39,007 bases of DNA from Fimbriimonadaceae bacterium (GTDB lineage Bacteria > Armatimonadota > Fimbriimonadia > Fimbriimonadales > Fimbriimonadaceae): contig JANWJY010000140.1 of assembly GCA_025451715.1 (NCBI GenBank), positions 1 to 39,007 on the forward strand, in the 5' to 3' direction. Positions within the stretch are counted from its first letter, which is position 1. The number at the start of each line of letters is the position of its first letter. The position numbers were made by a program, and so were the translations under genes. Of the stretch, positions 2,842-28,934 are shown in pieces. The notes beneath the pieces are model-generated. The model did not search any database, was not told the origin of the DNA, and was given only the letters and a program-made list of their open reading frames with translations.

Positions 2842-4224
2842 ATGCACCGCAGCATCGCCTTCGACGGCGCAGCGCGCACCGTCACGGGCTCGAGGCACCT
2901 GCTCTCCATCGGTGGACACAAGGTCCTCATCGACTGCGGCCTGTTCCAAGGGCCGCGCGAGATCCGCGAGCGCAACTGGGAGCCGTTCCCGTTCAACGTG
3001 GACGAGATCGAGATGCTGCTGCTGACGCACGCGCACACCGACCACGTCGGGCTGTTGCCGCGGTTGGTGAAGCAAGGCTTCAACAAGCCGGTGTACGCGA
3101 CTTCGGGCACGATCGGACTGGCCAACGTCGCGCTTCCGGACGGCGGGCGGCTACAGGAAGAGGACGCGCGGTACCACAACAGGCACCAGACAACTCGCCA
3201 CGAACCGGCGCTCCCGCTGTTCACCGAGAACGACGCGTACGACGCGCTGAAGCTGATGAAGCCGGTGCACTACCACCAGCCGTTGAAGCTCCCCGGTGGG
3301 GCGACGGCGCGGTACCTCCCGGCGGGCCACATCCTCGGCGCGTCGCACATCGAGGTCACTTTGGAAGACGGCGAGATCGTCGTGTTCTCCGGCGACGTTG
3401 GGCGCTACGACCGCCCGATCCTGAAGGACCCAAGCGACATCTTTACGGCAGACTATCTGGTCGTGGAGAGCACATACGGTGACCTTCAACACTCAAAGGA
3501 GGACACGGAGCGAAAACTCGCGGACCTTATCAACGAGGCGTCGAGGAACAAGAGCGTGATCCTCGTACCAAGCTTTGCGATCGGGCGCACGCAAGAGCTG
3601 CTTTGGTACATCCACCTCTTGATCGAGGGGAACAAGATCCCGCGCATTCCGATCTACGTCGACAGCCCGATGGCGAACGCGACCACGCTGCTCTACACCA
3701 ACCACACTGAGGACCACGACACTGAAATGAGGATCAGCCTCGCGAAAGGCGAGTCTCCGCTGAATCCTGAGCTCGTACGGCTCGTGCAGGATAGGAACAT
3801 GTCGAAGGCGCTCAATTTGGCCGACGGCCCGATGATGATCATCGCGGGCAGCGGAATGGTGAACGGGGGGCGTATCGTCCACCACCTTAAGCAGCGGCTG
3901 GGCGATCCGAGCACGGTCGTGCTCTTCACTGGGTATCAGGCGGAGGGGACGCGCGGACGCGACATGATCGAGGGCGCGGAGAGCGTGAACATCCTGGGAG
4001 ACGAGGTTCCAGTGCGGGCCCGGATCGAGAAACTGAATTCGCTCTCTGCGCACGCAGACTCGGAAGAGCTGATGCGCTGGATGTCGCACTTGAACTCCGC
4101 GCCGAAGCGCGTGTTCCTCGTGCACGGCGACTACGAGGTCCAAAAGGAGTTCCGGCTGAAGATCATCGAGCGGTACGGTTGGGAGGTCGACATCCCCGCG
4201 CCGGGTGATGTGTTTGAATTTTGA
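2842..4224 (+). CDS. MBL-fold metallo-hydrolase with beta-CASP / RNA-specificity domain (RNase J/CPSF-like)
   Basis: HxHxDH motif in LLLTHAHTDHVG. Also ESTYGD, SAHAD and VFLVHGD. Start taken at ATG 2842 (MHRSIAFDGAAR...). Confidence 0.85.
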   Translation: MHRSIAFDGAARTVTGSRHLLSIGGHKVLIDCGLFQGPREIRERNWEPFPFNVDEIEMLLLTHAHTDHVGLLPRLVKQGFNKPVYATSGTIGLANVALPDGGRLQEEDARYHNRHQTTRHEPALPLFTENDAYDALKLMKPVHYHQPLKLPGGATARYLPAGHILGASHIEVTLEDGEIVVFSGDVGRYDRPILKDPSDIFTADYLVVESTYGDLQHSKEDTERKLADLINEASRNKSVILVPSFAIGRTQELLWYIHLLIEGNKIPRIPIYVDSPMANATTLLYTNHTEDHDTEMRISLAKGESPLNPELVRLVQDRNMSKALNLADGPMMIIAGSGMVNGGRIVHHLKQRLGDPSTVVLFTGYQAEGTRGRDMIEGAESVNILGDEVPVRARIEKLNSLSAHADSEELMRWMSHLNSAPKRVFLVHGDYEVQKEFRLKIIERYGWEVDIPAPGDVFEF

Positions 4225-4270
4225 GAGCTGAGAGCTGAGGGCAGAGAGCAGAGTGCATAGTGCAGAGTGC
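4222..4270. repeat. tandem heptamer array (7 units)
   Basis: TGAGAGC TGAGAGC TGAGGGC AGAGAGC AGAGTGC ATAGTGC AGAGTGC. The first unit is the TGA stop of the beta-CASP gene. The array ends 11 nt before the convergent GH127 stop. Confidence 0.85.
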
Positions 4271-14452: not shown

Positions 14453-15130
14453 ATGGACAGCAAGAGGGCATTTACGCTGATAGAACTGCTGGTGGTGATC
14501 GCGATCCTCGCGATCCTAGCGGCGTTCCTTTTCCCGGTCTTCACACGGTCAAAGGCAGCAGCGAAGAAGTCGGCCTGTATAAGCAACCTGCGCCAGGTCG
14601 GTCAGGCGATGCTCTTGTACATTGAGGACTACGACGATGTGTTCCCACACGCTGTTGACGCAGCCGACAAGTACCGGCCAGAGATATGGTCAGGGTTCCC
14701 GGACTTCATGGCGCAGATCCCCAACATGCCGATGATGCACGAGGCGCTGCAGCCCTACGTCAGGAACTATCAGATCTTCGAGTGTCCCAGCGACTCCGGG
14801 ACGCAGGTCCTCGACACTCACCCGAACCTCGATTTCGTCACCGTGCCGACGATGTTCAACGTGTATGGGCTCTCTTACATGTACCGCACGGAGATCACAT
14901 TCAGGCACTATACGCACGGCGCGCTGCAGAACCCCGCGACGGTCAATGTGATGTTCGACGGTGCAGGAAACTGGCACGAGGGGGAACGCGCTCTCAGGCT
15001 CGACGACGTGTCGAACGGCGAGTTCATCGCACAACGCAAGAAGTTTCGCTACAACATCTTGTACGGCGACATGCACGTGAAGTCTGTGCGCTACGACGCG
15101 CTTGATGCGGCGTGGGGGACGGACCTGTGA
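14453..15130 (+). CDS. prepilin-type N-terminal cleavage/methylation domain protein (pseudopilin-like)
   Basis: N-terminus RAFTLIELLVVIAILAILAAFLFPVF. C-terminal degenerate DG-H region (NILYGDMHVK). Confidence 0.8.
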   Translation: MDSKRAFTLIELLVVIAILAILAAFLFPVFTRSKAAAKKSACISNLRQVGQAMLLYIEDYDDVFPHAVDAADKYRPEIWSGFPDFMAQIPNMPMMHEALQPYVRNYQIFECPSDSGTQVLDTHPNLDFVTVPTMFNVYGLSYMYRTEITFRHYTHGALQNPATVNVMFDGAGNWHEGERALRLDDVSNGEFIAQRKKFRYNILYGDMHVKSVRYDALDAAWGTDL

Positions 15131-15141
15131 GAGCGCAGAGC
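15128..15141. repeat. tandem heptamer array (2 units)
   Basis: TGAGAGC GCAGAGC. The first unit is the TGA stop of the 14453-15130 gene. Lies in the convergent gap before the GH26-like stop (15161). Confidence 0.5.
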
Positions 15142-21355: not shown

Positions 21356-21386
21356 TGAAGAGAGCGGAGAGCAGAGAGCGGAGAGC
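21352..21386. repeat. tandem heptamer array (5 units)
   Basis: ATAGTGA AGAGAGC GGAGAGC AGAGAGC GGAGAGC. The first unit contains the TAG stop of the M28 gene. Confidence 0.75.
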
Positions 21387-21396
21387 CGAGCGGGTG

Positions 21397-24421: not shown

Positions 24422-25444
24422 CTACTCTTCCGTGAAAAGGTCTGTCGGGCCATCACCCTTAAACAGCACGGTCGAAGGGGTCCAGTCTTTTGCGAAGGCG
24501 TCGGCTCTGGTCAACCACTCCTTTATTCGATCCTTTGGCTTTACGCTTTTGTCCCAGTACTCGACGAAAAGTTCGTCGGGCAGCTCCTTCGCTGCTTTTC
24601 GCATAAGGGACTCCACGTTTTGAAGCCCCTTGCGTACGTAATCTCCGCCTCTTTCGGTGCCGGCAGCACTCCCAGCAGAGAATAAGTCGCGAGTCTGCGA
24701 AGCCATCACATTGAAGTACTTGAGGAGAAAGAAGGCAACTCCTTTGTACTTGTTCTTGTCCCGAGAGCCGCCCACGATTTGAGGAAAAAGGAGGGAGGCC
24801 ACGGCACGAATCCATAGCCTCTCGTCCGGGGGTAGATTGGTATAGAGCTTTATCTCAAGCGGAATACCGGGAGCACTGTCATCCTCTAGCCACCATATGA
24901 CCTCACCGGGCTTCAGTCTGCCGCGAGCGTATTCGCGTACTTTCTTCATCTTCTGCTGCGGCTTGAGTTTGCAGAAATCTTCGTAAGACATGGACAGCCT
25001 TTCGAACAGGGGTGCTTTACCGGGCTCGTCGCTCATATCGACACAGAATCGTGGAGCGTGTGAAATACGAACGTGCGAAATCACCTGCTCGTACTTGCCC
25101 CATCGAACCGCCGGCATTCCCCCAGCTTTGCCAAACATAATCCATACTTCTTTAACGCTCTGATCCCGCATCCCCTCGAATACGCTGTTGCCCGTGCTCA
25201 GCCAACTGTCGTGGTCCGTGTACTTCACTTCAACACCGAAGCCGTTCGCGCAGATGTCTGGGAATGCGTGGCGGTGAAAACTGGGCTTCACCTTGATGTC
25301 GGAGTCGTGCGCGACTCGTTCAAGCACCTCAAGTACCCGGGCCGCGAATTTAGCAGGATCGTGATACTTCTTGCTCTCGAGAAGATCCGCGTTCAATTGT
25401 TCTGATGCCTTCGAAAGAAGGCTCTCGAATTCTGCCGTAGTCAT
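24422..25444 (-). CDS. putative type II restriction endonuclease (PD-ExK)
   Basis: FPD...GVEVK gives a PD-(D/E)xK-like arrangement near the N-terminus. The ATG forms an ATGA overlap with the stop of the adjacent C5-methyltransferase. Lower GC than surroundings. No other recognisable domain. Confidence 0.55.
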   Translation of the reverse strand: MTTAEFESLLSKASEQLNADLLESKKYHDPAKFAARVLEVLERVAHDSDIKVKPSFHRHAFPDICANGFGVEVKYTDHDSWLSTGNSVFEGMRDQSVKEVWIMFGKAGGMPAVRWGKYEQVISHVRISHAPRFCVDMSDEPGKAPLFERLSMSYEDFCKLKPQQKMKKVREYARGRLKPGEVIWWLEDDSAPGIPLEIKLYTNLPPDERLWIRAVASLLFPQIVGGSRDKNKYKGVAFFLLKYFNVMASQTRDLFSAGSAAGTERGGDYVRKGLQNVESLMRKAAKELPDELFVEYWDKSVKPKDRIKEWLTRADAFAKDWTPSTVLFKGDGPTDLFTEE

Positions 25445-26409
25445 TCCAAACAATCCGCAACCGACCGGGCGACGTGCCAGGCCAAGACGGGCGGTACTGC
25501 ATTGCCGACTTGTCGCTCTGTTTCTCGCAAGCGAGCTTCAAATACGAAATCATCCGGAAAGGACTGGATTCGCGCCGCCTCTCTCATGGAGATTCGGCGA
25601 TCTAGTTTGTAGTGAAACTGGATGTTGCCGTGGCATTCGGCGCGGATCGTGTCTGATGGCCGGTGCGCCTTGAGTTTTCTGCTCCCTTGATCGTGACTAG
25701 GACGTGCGCGGCTCCAAATGTGATTGGGAGCATCGTATTCGCGTTTTTTGATCAAGTCGGAAATCGCCTGCTCCGCAGTCATCCAATCACGTTTATCGAG
25801 CACCGGTTTGGGATGCTTGAAGAGGCGAACACCGGGGCGCGTACCCACGAAGAAAACGCGCTGACGCATTTGCGGCACACCGTAATCTGCCGCAAGGTAG
25901 AGCTCGTAGGAGACGTTGTATCCGAGGCCCTTGAACGACTTGATAATTTCATCAAGCGCGGCACGATTGTATTCTTGCAGGAGCCCTTTGACATTTTCGG
26001 CAATGAACACCTTCGGCTTTGTGCGACCAACGGCGGCGACCATTGCTCGATAGAGACCACTACGCTCACCCGCTGCGCCCGTTCGCTTGCCGTTGATCGA
26101 AAAATCCTGACACGGGAAGCCGCCAATCAGGACGTCAGCCCGTTTCGGCATGTCCTCAATCGTCTCCCAAATGTCGCCGCAGACGATGTGCCCTCCGATG
26201 TTGCGCCGATACGTTCTGCACGCGGCAGGGTTGAGATCGTTGGCCCAAGTGACGCGAAACGGGTTCCGCCGATAGCGTTTTCCGAAGACCTCGAAGCCGC
26301 CTTGAAAACCGAGATCGAGGCCACCACAGCCAGAGAACAGAGATACGACTTTGTGCTCCCTCAGAGCCGGAGAGAGCACCATTCTACGACTTAGGTCTGC
26401 GACGGCCAT
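25441..26409 (-). CDS. dcm: DNA (cytosine-5)-methyltransferase
   Basis: Canonical motifs: I (LFSGCGGLDLGF), IV (GGFPCQDFS), VI (ENVKGL), VIII (QMRQRVFFVG), IX and X (SFPDDFVF, QVGNAVPP). Start taken at ATG 26409; the track ORF starts at a TTG at 26457. Confidence 0.92.
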   Translation of the reverse strand: MAVADLSRRMVLSPALREHKVVSLFSGCGGLDLGFQGGFEVFGKRYRRNPFRVTWANDLNPAACRTYRRNIGGHIVCGDIWETIEDMPKRADVLIGGFPCQDFSINGKRTGAAGERSGLYRAMVAAVGRTKPKVFIAENVKGLLQEYNRAALDEIIKSFKGLGYNVSYELYLAADYGVPQMRQRVFFVGTRPGVRLFKHPKPVLDKRDWMTAEQAISDLIKKREYDAPNHIWSRARPSHDQGSRKLKAHRPSDTIRAECHGNIQFHYKLDRRISMREAARIQSFPDDFVFEARLRETERQVGNAVPPVLAWHVARSVADCLE

Positions 26410-26500
26410 ACGCCAATTGTGACGGATTTCTGCCCGGGTTTGACGCTCACAGGACAAAAATACTGGAAATTCGTCTACCTCTTTTACAATCCTAGGTTCA

Positions 26501-26731
26501 AATGAGCCTGGCTAGAGCCGATTTGAGCCTGATTTGAACCTCTCCAAGCCCTTGGAGAGCCTCTTGGGAGGCTTAGAGAACCCCTCCAAAGCCTTGAAGA
26601 GCCTCTTTGGAGCCTTGGAGAACCCCTCCAAAGCCTTGAAGAGCCTCTTTGGAGCCTTGGAGAACCCCTCCGGACCCTTGGAGAGGTGCGGAAAGGGCTT
26701 GGAGAACCCCTCCGCTTGCATCCCTGGCCTC
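26501..26731. repeat. array of about 11 tandem 21-bp units (two alternating types form a 42-bp repeat) with 10-11 bp sub-periodicity
   Basis: Core is TCCAAAGCCTTGAAGAGCCTC + TTTGGAGCCTTGGAGAACCCC, repeated perfectly twice (26585-26668) and degenerating on both sides. AGCC/AACC cores sit at 26505, 516, 526, 536, 547, 558, 569, 579, 590, 600, 611, 621, 632, 642, 653, 663 and 674. Confidence 0.9.
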
Positions 26732-26751
26732 TCCGGTGGAAAACTCGGGGC

Positions 26752-27363
26752 ATGGCAACAAGTCGAATCTCAAGACGGCCCGACGCGCTTCGGGACATGC
26801 TCACACAGGCATCGGCGGCGGCGACTGCGGTAGGCCTACCCTGGCCCGCGGCGGCACCGACCCCCGCACAGCTCACGGCGGGTGCGACGGCGCTCAACAC
26901 CAACGTCACGAACCTCAACAACCTCGACGGGCAGATCGCTACCGAGCGGCAGACCCGCGACACGAACGTCAACTCTGGTTTCGTGCTCATGCAGCGCGTC
27001 GATGAGGCGACCGACTCGCTGTACGGTCCCGACGGGGCGCAAAAACTCAACTTCGGTCTTCCTCCCAAGGGCACTGGCACGATTGATCCGCTGGTGAAAC
27101 TGACCGACCTGAAAGTGTACGACGGGCTCTTGCCGGGTTCGATCCGTTTTGATTTCGAGAACATCGACGGCGCGAGCTACGAAGTGGTGTGGGCGACCGA
27201 CTCCGCTTTCAACAACGTAGTCGGTTCTGCCGTCTCGACGCAGAGCGAGTACATGATCGCGGGGCTGACTTCCGGGACGCAGTACTGGATGCGCGTCCGC
27301 CCCGTTCGCGGCGGTCAGTCCGCGCCTTGGTCCGACCCGGCCACTCGCGTTGCTCCGCTGTAA
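26752..27363 (+). CDS. small protein with C-terminal fibronectin type III-like domain
   Basis: C-terminal YEVVWATDSAFNNVVGSAVSTQSEYMIAGLTSGTQYWMRVRPVRGGQSAPWSDP fits an FN3 fold pattern. The N-terminal half is Ala/Thr/Asn-rich and helical-looking. Start at ATG 26752. Confidence 0.6.
   Translation: MATSRISRRPDALRDMLTQASAAATAVGLPWPAAAPTPAQLTAGATALNTNVTNLNNLDGQIATERQTRDTNVNSGFVLMQRVDEATDSLYGPDGAQKLNFGLPPKGTGTIDPLVKLTDLKVYDGLLPGSIRFDFENIDGASYEVVWATDSAFNNVVGSAVSTQSEYMIAGLTSGTQYWMRVRPVRGGQSAPWSDPATRVAPL

Positions 27364-28934
<1,571 letters not shown>

Follow-up and report, generated by a model that had tools for sequence, protein, structure and literature searches.

A 21-bp tandem array coupled to a family of FN3-domain genes in Armatimonadota and Planctomycetota, and its possible role as a phased binding platform

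To our knowledge, pairings in which one gene family keeps its own tandem array are known mainly from plasmid centromeres and iterons, and not from single genes of the chromosome. For example, the partition centromere sopC of the F plasmid is composed of 12 units of 43 bp located downstream of sopB, the parC of plasmid R1 has 10 units of 11 bp placed around the parMR promoter, and the parC of pSK41 has 4 units of 20 bp. The iterons of the theta-replicating plasmids are repeats of 17-22 bp, spaced at some 22 bp, which are found next to rep. Direct sites are also present in the pho boxes, i.e., the operators of the response regulators PhoB and PhoP, in which 7-bp cores recur every 11 bp. REP/BIME clusters and the heptamer repeats known as STRR in cyanobacteria are dispersed, with many copies per genome.

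The array described here lies in a stretch of 39,007 nucleotides from a Fimbriimonadaceae bacterium (contig JANWJY010000140.1), the whole of which is referred to below as the window, and it represents, in this genome, a conserved minisatellite of 21 bp that evolves rapidly and shows genetic coupling to one family of FN3-domain genes. This pairing has survived across two phyla with a period of exactly 21 bp while the sequence turns over, and a full-text literature search found no description of an FN3 gene paired with a 21-bp array.

Anatomy of the array in the window

The array fills the region between two divergent genes, and both the methyltransferase (Pfam PF00145) and the FN3 gene that the earlier note had named as its flanks were recovered. 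The loci compared are designated below by L numbers. The features of the region are as follows:

24422-25453, minus strand: type II restriction endonuclease (PADLOC, 2e-83)
25441-26457, minus strand: C5 methyltransferase (Pfam PF00145, 3.6e-70)
edge of the array: AGGTTCAA
26494-26509, no strand: edge motif AGGTTCAAATGAGCCT, an imperfect 16-bp palindrome (AGGYTCR-AA-YGARCCT) and the left boundary of the module
26503-26541, no strand: lead-in of 10-11-bp half-units similar to TGAGCCTGATT (Tandem Repeats Finder: period 11, 3.6 copies)
26536-26727, no strand: 21-bp array proper, nine units, with the A type (GAACCCCTCCAAAGCCTTGAA) alternating with the B type (GAGCCTCTTTGGAGCCTTGGA)
26728-26751, plus strand: spacer from the last decayed unit to the FN3 start codon, with GAAAACTC common to the window spacer and L008
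26752-27363, plus strand: gene of the FN3-domain protein, 203 aa (Pfam), with the start at 26752 fixed by its orthologues

The about eleven 21-bp units of two alternating types that the earlier note had described were confirmed, and they extend from 26494 to 26727. Eleven rows can be set in the 21-nt register from 26494 up to 26724, each of which opens with GA(A/G)CC or AGGTT. Tandem Repeats Finder reports 26536-26685 with a period of 42, 3.6 copies, and 89% matches, together with rows of period 21 and period 84 for the same array, and the repeat search returned seven copies at an exact spacing of 21 bp. The alternation of the A and B types produces the 42-bp super-period of 26536-26727, which decays at both ends, and the 84-bp core does consist of two perfect 42-bp copies, with 26585-26626 being identical to 26627-26668. 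The longest perfect stretch at a lag of 42 extends over 26576-26671; CTCCAAAG is found at 26584 and again at 26626, and CTTTGGAG at 26605 and 26647.

The A[GA]CC cores of the array start at 26505, 26516, 26526, and so on up to 26663, at spacings of 11, 10, 11, 10, 11, 21, 11, 10, 11, 10, 11, 10, 11, and 10 bp, in which the lone 21 is the site of one inverted core. Their density is 70 per kb in the array vs. 7.8 per kb in the whole window, i.e., about nine times as high. The lead-in terminates in TTTGAACCT, an inverted copy of the left arm of the edge motif, and 26494-26509 forms an inverted repeat with 26526-26541 that is 88% complementary. TTGAACCT recurs 30-40 bp past the edge motif in the window, L013, and L061, and is also present in L073 and L074. 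The TACAAT hexamer noted previously beside the array is present, 4 nt upstream of the edge motif, one base away from the coordinates first given (26485-26490 and not 26484-26489). The array and its flanks have a GC content of approximately 59%.

Clear Shine-Dalgarno sequences are absent from the spacer at 26728-26751, and a consensus scan of 26300-26900 returned no sigma-70-like site. No second copy of either 21-mer was found in the 39-kb window at up to 3 mismatches, and none was expected in shuffles; on this evidence, the array is not a dispersed repeat, such as those of the REP/BIME kind. The Rfam covariance models gave 0 matches at the gathering score anywhere in the window, which also contains no tRNA. 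The origin of GGTTCAAAT from a tRNA or attachment site was considered and rejected, based on this absence of a tRNA and on flanks that are unable to form a T-arm. A CRISPR array was likewise discarded, in that the units are contiguous, without spacers, and no cas families are found among the neighbours searched against Pfam. Separately, the window has arrays of the GAGAGCN heptamer, which are placed at the 3' ends of genes.

Linkage to the FN3 gene and turnover of the units

A total of 57 metagenome loci were fetched, and further loci were obtained by exact-protein look-up. The first hint of 21-bp arrays upstream of the gene in other genomes was provided by three gene calls with N-terminal extensions of 7-residue repeats. 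In a uniform scan of the distinct full-length orthologue loci, with the minimum lag-21 match set to 0.60 over 84 nt, an array was found no more than 700 bp from the FN3 gene in 35 of the 41 loci, and the same scan gave a single comparable region in the 176 kb of DNA located more than 700 bp from the gene. In four of the six loci that the scan missed, the flank available on the side in question is shorter than 230 nt. The divergent homologue at L087 is clearly without an array, and has a canonical terminator at its end. When Tandem Repeats Finder was applied to 280 kb of the loci, nearly all the arrays of at least 60 bp had a period of 21, 42, or 63 and were found beside the FN3 gene.

The array lies upstream of the ATG in 20 loci, all of which, except for L022, are of the Armatimonadota type (approximately 49% or more protein identity to the window), and most of the arrays of this type end 15-90 bp before the ATG. 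In 15 loci, which make up a more distant group (31-48% identity), it begins 5-180 bp after the stop codon, and many of these arrays start 10-30 bp past this codon, with no terminator between. The named members of the FN3 family are Fimbriimonadaceae or Armatimonadetes MAGs, plus one Sedimentisphaerales (Planctomycetota) MAG, the one named member from which the phylum of the distant group is taken. The 21-bp array is tied to the same small FN3-domain gene in two bacterial phyla, and this gene is the only one that consistently accompanies the array in other genomes.

Wider searches were also conducted. A scan of species-representative genomes for two conserved 13-mers at the array spacing found no homologue; all that it returned were unrelated arrays, from Lentisphaeria, Streptomyces, and other taxa, which share a 13-mer but have other units, repeated every 33-42 bp. 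Neither the 203-aa FN3 protein nor P0003 was matched in an exact-protein look-up. Given that the viral contigs provided only a single weak partial match, the module does not appear to be phage-borne.

The other neighbours of the FN3 gene vary from one locus to the next. The window has the restriction-modification (R-M) pair and ProRS, whereas L008 has CrcB and peptidases, L068 a Y1 transposase, L070 Mrr and GmrSD, L074 pseudopilin-like genes, and L087 RHS proteins. In L072 the neighbours are PEP-CTERM-like proteins, an assignment made by eye on the basis of the PEP...RRRR tails at their C-termini. In an alignment of six loci, the homology starts abruptly at TAGGTTCAA, with an invariant AGGTTC.A, and the sequence further upstream does not align. 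The edge motif is found 241-258 bp before the ATG in the window, L008, L013, and L061, and in L073 it carries a symmetric double change, from TCA..TGA to TCG..CGA. As the flanking genes differ and the loci cease to be homologous beyond the edge motif, the array behaves together with the FN3 gene as a single module.

The reading given in the earlier note, which linked the array to the R-M genes, must thus be re-centred, as the array travels with the FN3 gene and not with the R-M genes. The position of the window array, in the divergent region between the methyltransferase and the FN3 genes, might suggest that it controls the adjacent R-M system or switches it by phase variation, but the comparative data already contradict this role, which is barely credible and was rejected. 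In the window, the R-M genes lie in a low-GC segment (0.54 vs. approximately 0.62), and the pair is an insertion that is seen only at the window's locus among the loci compared. The closest relative, L073 (78% FN3 identity), has a homologous edge motif and array with no R-M genes, the genes upstream of the orthologous arrays are unrelated, and the array stands beside FN3 in the 35 of 41 loci whatever its other neighbours may be.

The copy number is also the same between the samples compared. L074, L075, and L076, from three different samples, are identical base-for-base over 1070 bp, with the same FN3 protein, and the L008/L009, L033/L034, and L039/L040 pairs have identical tandem-repeat results or printed sequence. 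The earlier suggestion of copy-number phase variation received no positive evidence from this comparison, and there is no sign of a phase-variable contingency repeat, given that the copy number is identical in all four contig sets (three from different samples), a small comparison in which short-read assemblies break inside the arrays. In the case of P0019, 9 Logan contigs of the 16 on record all end 61-149 bp upstream of the ATG, and the six longest upstream flanks among these 9 end inside the array. The gene callers are also misled by the arrays, with P0009 being called at 124 aa, and P0003, P0008, and P0047 having false repeat extensions. In practical terms, the arrays break short-read assemblies and lead to the truncation or extension of the FN3 gene.

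All the arrays keep a period of 21 bp; they have 5-12 units, often show super-periods of 42 or 63 bp, and their unit sequences are lineage-specific, differing even between close relatives. Among the Armatimonadota-type arrays, no k-mer is universal, and no 5-mer is common to more than 4 of 18; the window and L073 can be aligned across the edge region only. The units of the Armatimonadota-type arrays resemble repeated versions of the edge palindrome or of its half-sites. GAGCC(T) is kept in the units of the window, L025, L028, and L083, the units of L074 retain GGTTCTAAAT, those of L021 and L032 are close to the whole edge palindrome, and in L074 and L021 each unit can be read as the edge motif over again. 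Most Armatimonadota-type arrays are enriched 2-10 times in GARCC or its complement GGYTC, which is absent from L012 and L038, and the distant-group arrays have a common AAAG(T/C)(A/G)CT core.

The sub-lags are 10/11 or 9/12 in the Armatimonadota-type arrays, which implies two half-sites per unit; the distant group has sub-lags of 7/14 or 6/15. The 10.5-bp helical phasing that had been proposed for the array holds in the window, where the cores recur every 10-11 bp, as it does in L010, L013, L021, and L032, but does not stand as a general property, with sub-lags of 9/12 or 7/14 in the other arrays. A universal 10.5-bp sub-period was rejected on these grounds, and the phasing of the window is real but lineage-specific. 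The orientation of the half-sites also varies by lineage, being direct in the window and inverted in L021 and L073. A universal dyad-symmetric core was rejected in turn, as L028, L029, and L037 are the only ones of the Armatimonadota-type arrays examined in which tight palindromes reach significance.

The FN3 protein and the possible roles of the array

The FN3 protein has 80 homologues, mostly of 200-206 aa, which cover 97-100% of the query. In the AlphaFold2 model (pLDDT 90), residues 1-9 are predicted to be unstructured and are followed by helices at 10-27 and 38-91 and by the FN3 domain at 120-200. The N-terminal arm has an invariant R-I and then three hypervariable residues, with RIPTKP being found together with AAAGYRCT arrays at about 12 loci, RIATKP with TTAGCGC, RIHTKP with a third type, and RISKNA with GGNGCTCC at two loci, a correlation between arm and array type that is confounded by phylogeny. 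The array-less homologue of L087 is also without the R-I and LRDQL motifs. The FN3 proteins are acidic, with a mean pI of 5.1, and have a net positive charge only at residues 1-12.

Only the FN3 domain was matched in Pfam, NCBIfam, PHROGs, PADLOC, a PDB sequence search, and Foldseek, with no DNA- or RNA-binding domain being found by any of them, and no ribbon-helix-helix or helix-turn-helix was found by Pfam (E up to 10, N-terminal 110 residues), a PDB profile search (residues 1-60), or Foldseek. A ribbon-helix-helix N-terminus was considered, with P-x-E-L-R-D-Q-L resembling the Arc/Mnt helix cap by eye, and was rejected for lack of profile or fold support. A dimer-dependent ribbon may nevertheless form in residues 1-9, which are unstructured in the monomer model.

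Given that the DNA itself is the common denominator across the groups, a role at the DNA level is favoured, and our best explanation, proposed tentatively, is that the array is a non-coding DNA element in which phased half-sites, derived from the conserved edge palindrome, are bound cooperatively by a candidate protein. The anatomy of the array, its phasing, its linkage to the FN3 gene over two phyla, its independence from the R-M genes, and its stability between samples are results of the analysis; the action at the DNA level, the binding of a protein, the identity of this protein, and the regulatory outcome are what we infer. The array would act as double-stranded DNA, and the approximately 15 reiterated GARCC(T/C) half-sites of the window would be copies of the right arm of the conserved 16-bp palindrome at its 5' edge. 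As the half-sites lie one helical turn apart, all of them would face one side of the helix over some 170-230 bp. A sequence-specific protein would nucleate at the palindrome and extend cooperatively along the phased sites, and the nucleoprotein filament so formed would lie immediately before the FN3 promoter, where it would control the locus, insulate it, or mark it in some other way.

Given that the unit sequence changes by lineage and the 21-bp period does not, the specificity of the binder would have to co-evolve with the array, and as the FN3 gene is its only consistent companion, the product of this gene is a candidate binder, albeit a speculative one, which would bind through its short basic N-terminal arm. 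The position of the array is flexible, either upstream or downstream of the gene or at a variable distance from it, and the array tolerates an insertion of 115 bp (in L028) as well as being inverted (in L041), all of which fits a binding platform better than a promoter-proximal element. A sigma-70-like match (TTGAAC-16-GATAAT) is conserved between the array and the ATG in L021 and L032, with a similar downstream match in L037, and a divergent promoter-like match is found at the outer edge of the array in L021 and L032, all of these being matches to the consensus, of which there are none in the window itself. If the promoter-like sites of L021, L032, and L037 are real, the array in these loci would be an untranscribed spacer. 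On the other hand, some arrays (L012 and L038) have no GARCC at all, and the tight palindromes are significant in one lineage only, both of which count against this explanation, as do the variable orientation and arrangement of the half-sites and, for the FN3 protein as the binder, the lack of a recognised DNA-binding domain and the acidic character of the protein.

It is also conceivable, albeit unlikely, that the FN3 protein and its neighbouring array make up a self-contained, co-evolving recognition module that is conserved across the Armatimonadota and the Planctomycetota. In this arrangement, the arm, with its invariant R-I and three specificity residues, would be a nucleic-acid-binding element of a kind not recognised before, and the protein, in which it is followed by a long coiled coil and the FN3 domain, would use it to coat the 5-12 phased sites that flank its own gene. 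If the sites are read as DNA, they would serve on the chromosome as an anchor or a centromere-like element that has no partition NTPase, and if they are read as RNA, the FN3 protein would load onto its own mRNA.

The main rival to the binding platform, which we consider somewhat unlikely, is a repeat in the untranslated region of the FN3 transcript, i.e., an RNA element that forms the 5' leader in the Armatimonadota type and a 3' trailer or intercistronic spacer in the distant group, and that would act on the stability, processing, or translation of the mRNA, or serve as the multi-site partner of the arginine-rich arm of the FN3 protein. The array abuts the FN3 ORF on either side, and in L039 it runs straight into the ribosome-binding site of the next gene; given that the distant-group array abuts the stop codon, it is probably transcribed there, and a role as RNA is conceivable. 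All but one of the distant-group arrays have the same orientation, when their unit cores are read, most arrays are more self-complementary than dinucleotide shuffles (z of -2 to -9; in the window, -3.6 for the plus and -5.2 for the minus strand), and the TACAAT hexamer of the window would also be consistent with a transcribed array. The folding is not universal, however (z of approximately 0 to -1.5 in L016, L061, L041, L043, L056, and L015), and there is no preference for the sense strand, with 10 arrays folding better in antisense and 6 in sense. The palindromes of L028, L029, L037, and the distant group reach the centre, leaving no loop, no Rfam family is matched, the promoter-like sites of L021, L032, and L037 lie downstream of the array, and the strictly conserved 21-nt period is left without a reason. 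This period, conserved as strictly as the sequence is free, would be expected of a sequence-independent structural DNA, in which in-phase bends every two helical turns produce a curved or easily wrapped segment that would contribute to promoter architecture, insulate, or provide a pad for a nucleoid protein, with selection on the period and length only. The wedge model predicts a bend of 60-145 degrees over 168 bp in most arrays vs. approximately 25-40 degrees in ordinary DNA of the same loci, an estimate on which the two parameter sets disagree. This reading is nevertheless improbable, as the edge palindrome, the enrichment of the half-sites, and the restriction to one gene family are left unexplained, and the real units are no more bent than position-permuted periodic controls; intrinsic curvature was rejected as a selected property on this last result, and may be a simple by-product of the periodicity.

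A minisatellite without function, maintained by some mutational process at the site, for instance slippage that starts from the edge palindrome, and hitch-hiking with FN3, would account for the rapid and concerted turnover of the units, for the super-periods of 42 and 63 bp, which are typical of unequal exchange, and for the assemblies that break inside the array. It is quite improbable, given that the array persists beside one gene family over two phyla, at approximately 45% protein identity, with a constant period and a length in a similar range (5-12 units), that hardly any array of this kind occurs in the 176 kb of other DNA, and that the arrays are identical between samples. The coding of heptad repeats, either as a small repeat peptide or as an extension of FN3 with 7 residues per unit, is highly improbable, even though 21 bp corresponds to 7 codons and one plus-strand frame of many arrays, in the two groups alike, reads as a heptad of the form x-P-x-(K/Q)-(A/V/T)-L-x, with variation that looks synonymous (CCN; TTG vs. 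CTC). A GGAG-N5-ATG is found just past the FN3 stop in several distant-group loci, and some of the gene calls (P0003, P0008, and P0047) join the array to FN3 in the same frame. No strand or frame is open in all the arrays, however, with stops in all the minus-strand frames in L008 and L017 and in all the plus-strand frames in L012 and L032, and the frame of the shared motif has 1-4 stops in L015, L018, L023, L027, L044, L031, L028, L037, and L032 (approximately 40% of the arrays). The open plus-strand frame of L027 is shifted in relation to that of L033 despite the same DNA core, the conservation within the arrays takes the form of contiguous blocks with no 3-nt periodicity, the ORF in the motif frame of the window (26534-26833) begins at a TTG and shares 80 nt with the FN3 gene in a different frame, and the repeat ORFs have no Pfam match. 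The open frames thus vary in strand and phase between loci, and the coding repeats that the earlier note had named as a possible refutation look unlikely.

If the array is indeed a binding platform, it would be a new cis element, and may define a new architecture of nucleic-acid-binding proteins in two poorly studied phyla, as well as providing a natural system for the study of the co-evolution of a protein and its repeated site.

Comparison with known systems

The resemblance to iterons and centromeres pointed out in the earlier note is borne out for the architecture of the array, which is iteron- or operator-like, but does not extend to membership of the parC or centromere class, as there is no partition NTPase in the loci examined, and no ParA, ParM, or TubZ is present in the Pfam lists of the neighbours of the window, L008, L068, L070, L072, L073, L074, and L087. 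Like the partition centromeres, the array has head-to-tail units with a short recognition core and helical phasing, is located directly upstream or downstream of a small gene, and combines a lineage-specific sequence with a conserved architecture. It differs from them in being chromosomal, and in having an acidic candidate binder without a recognised ribbon-helix-helix or helix-turn-helix fold.

The iterons have in common with the array the length of the unit, the two-turn phasing, and the presence of tandem direct repeats beside one gene. The array, by contrast, has no Rep-like gene, AT-rich unwinding element, or DnaA boxes, and its flanks are housekeeping genes; a plasmid iteron origin is also at odds with the GC content of the array and its flanks and with neighbours among which no Rep family is found. 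In the pho boxes, as in the array, direct half-sites lie one helical turn apart on one face of the helix, although they have 2-6 half-sites, in comparison with the approximately 15 of the array, to which no response regulator is linked and whose core is not conserved between species.

The REP/BIME and STRR repeats are similar to the array in being intergenic, with palindromic units or units of alternating orientation and a species-specific sequence, but they are dispersed, whereas the 39 kb contain only one copy of the array, which is linked to a single gene family. The promoter repeats of the contingency loci are also tandem repeats found between divergent genes, from which the array differs in its 21-bp units, in being identical in three samples, and in that it can lie downstream of the gene.

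Array breaks and gene calls

Short-read assemblies are systematically broken by these arrays. For example, the FN3-protein homologue P0019 is found in 16 Logan contigs, and in all of the nine that were displayed (L077-L085; 9 of 16) the upstream flank ends 61-149 bp before the ATG, the six longest of these flanks stopping within the CGAGAGCCCCCCGCACCTTGC array.

The gene calls of the family are also affected at their starts. The protein recorded for the FN3 gene of the window (26752-27363), P0009, has 124 aa and begins at an internal Met, while comparison with the orthologues places the true start at 26752, and the genes of three homologues from other genomes (P0003, P0008 and P0047) have been wrongly lengthened through the array by gene callers. 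Around the gene of the divergent homologue P0074 (locus L087, 4001-4800), which has a canonical terminator at its end, the array is absent from both sides, and the protein is without the N-terminal R-I and LRDQL motifs that are conserved in other homologues.

Promoter-like sites and an insertion around the arrays

The following features were found at the FN3 loci of other genomes or samples:

L021 3069-3096 and 3334-3361, L032 162-189 and 429-456: conserved, divergent sigma-70-like promoter matches on both sides of the array
L027 4934-5050: sigma-70-like promoter match (11/12, TTGAAA-16-TATAAT), directly 3' of the downstream array
L028 about 565-680 (-174 to -60 from the ATG): 115-bp palindromic insertion, with the array on one side and the promoter region of FN3 on the other

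In both L021 and L032, the first array unit is overlapped by the -35 box of an outward-facing match. In L027, a hairpin that resembles a terminator and has a run of T lies approximately 70 nt past the promoter-like match, and this stretch could be a small RNA or a leader; the promoter-like sequence is also present in L023 and L044. The insertion in L028 resembles a miniature transposable element and is flanked by a duplicated AAGTTTTCG; L037 and L029, both related loci, lack it.

Neighbours of the FN3 gene

On either side of the FN3 gene, the window contains:

24422-26457: type II R-M pair, endonuclease (PADLOC match, 2e-83) and C5 methyltransferase
27445-28799: prolyl-tRNA synthetase (ProRS) gene, frame break at 28055-28075

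The R-M pair lies within a low-GC segment (0.54) that has no counterpart in the closest related locus, L073, and is probably a recent insertion beside the FN3 module. Elsewhere too, FN3 loci adjoin genes of defence or of mobile elements: Mrr and GmrSD (L070), a Y1 transposase (L068) or genes judged by eye to be baseplate-like (L039).

The ProRS frame break falls at GTTCTCGCGGTCTAAAG, where a single added G would restore the frame across a 14-residue stretch. Either the G run was misread in sequencing or assembly, or the gene is truly frameshifted.

Motifs shared with other repeats

The 13-mer GGAGAACCCCTCC is common to tandem arrays with periods of 33-42 bp that were matched in the genome scan (L001-L007), in Lentisphaeria, Streptomyces, Oscillospiraceae and one unclassified bacterium. 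These arrays are unrelated, and the shared 13-mer appears to have arisen by convergence on a hairpin-like core, GGGAG...CTCCC, and not by homology.

Within the window, GAGAGCN heptamers form tandem repeats at convergent gene ends:

4222-4270
21360-21390
15129-15141

These arrays start in or just past the stop codons (8 matches versus 0.5 expected). GAGAGC is common to the heptamers and the 21-bp units (GGAGAGCC, GAAGAGCC), and the heptamer repeats resemble the STRR-type repeats of cyanobacteria.
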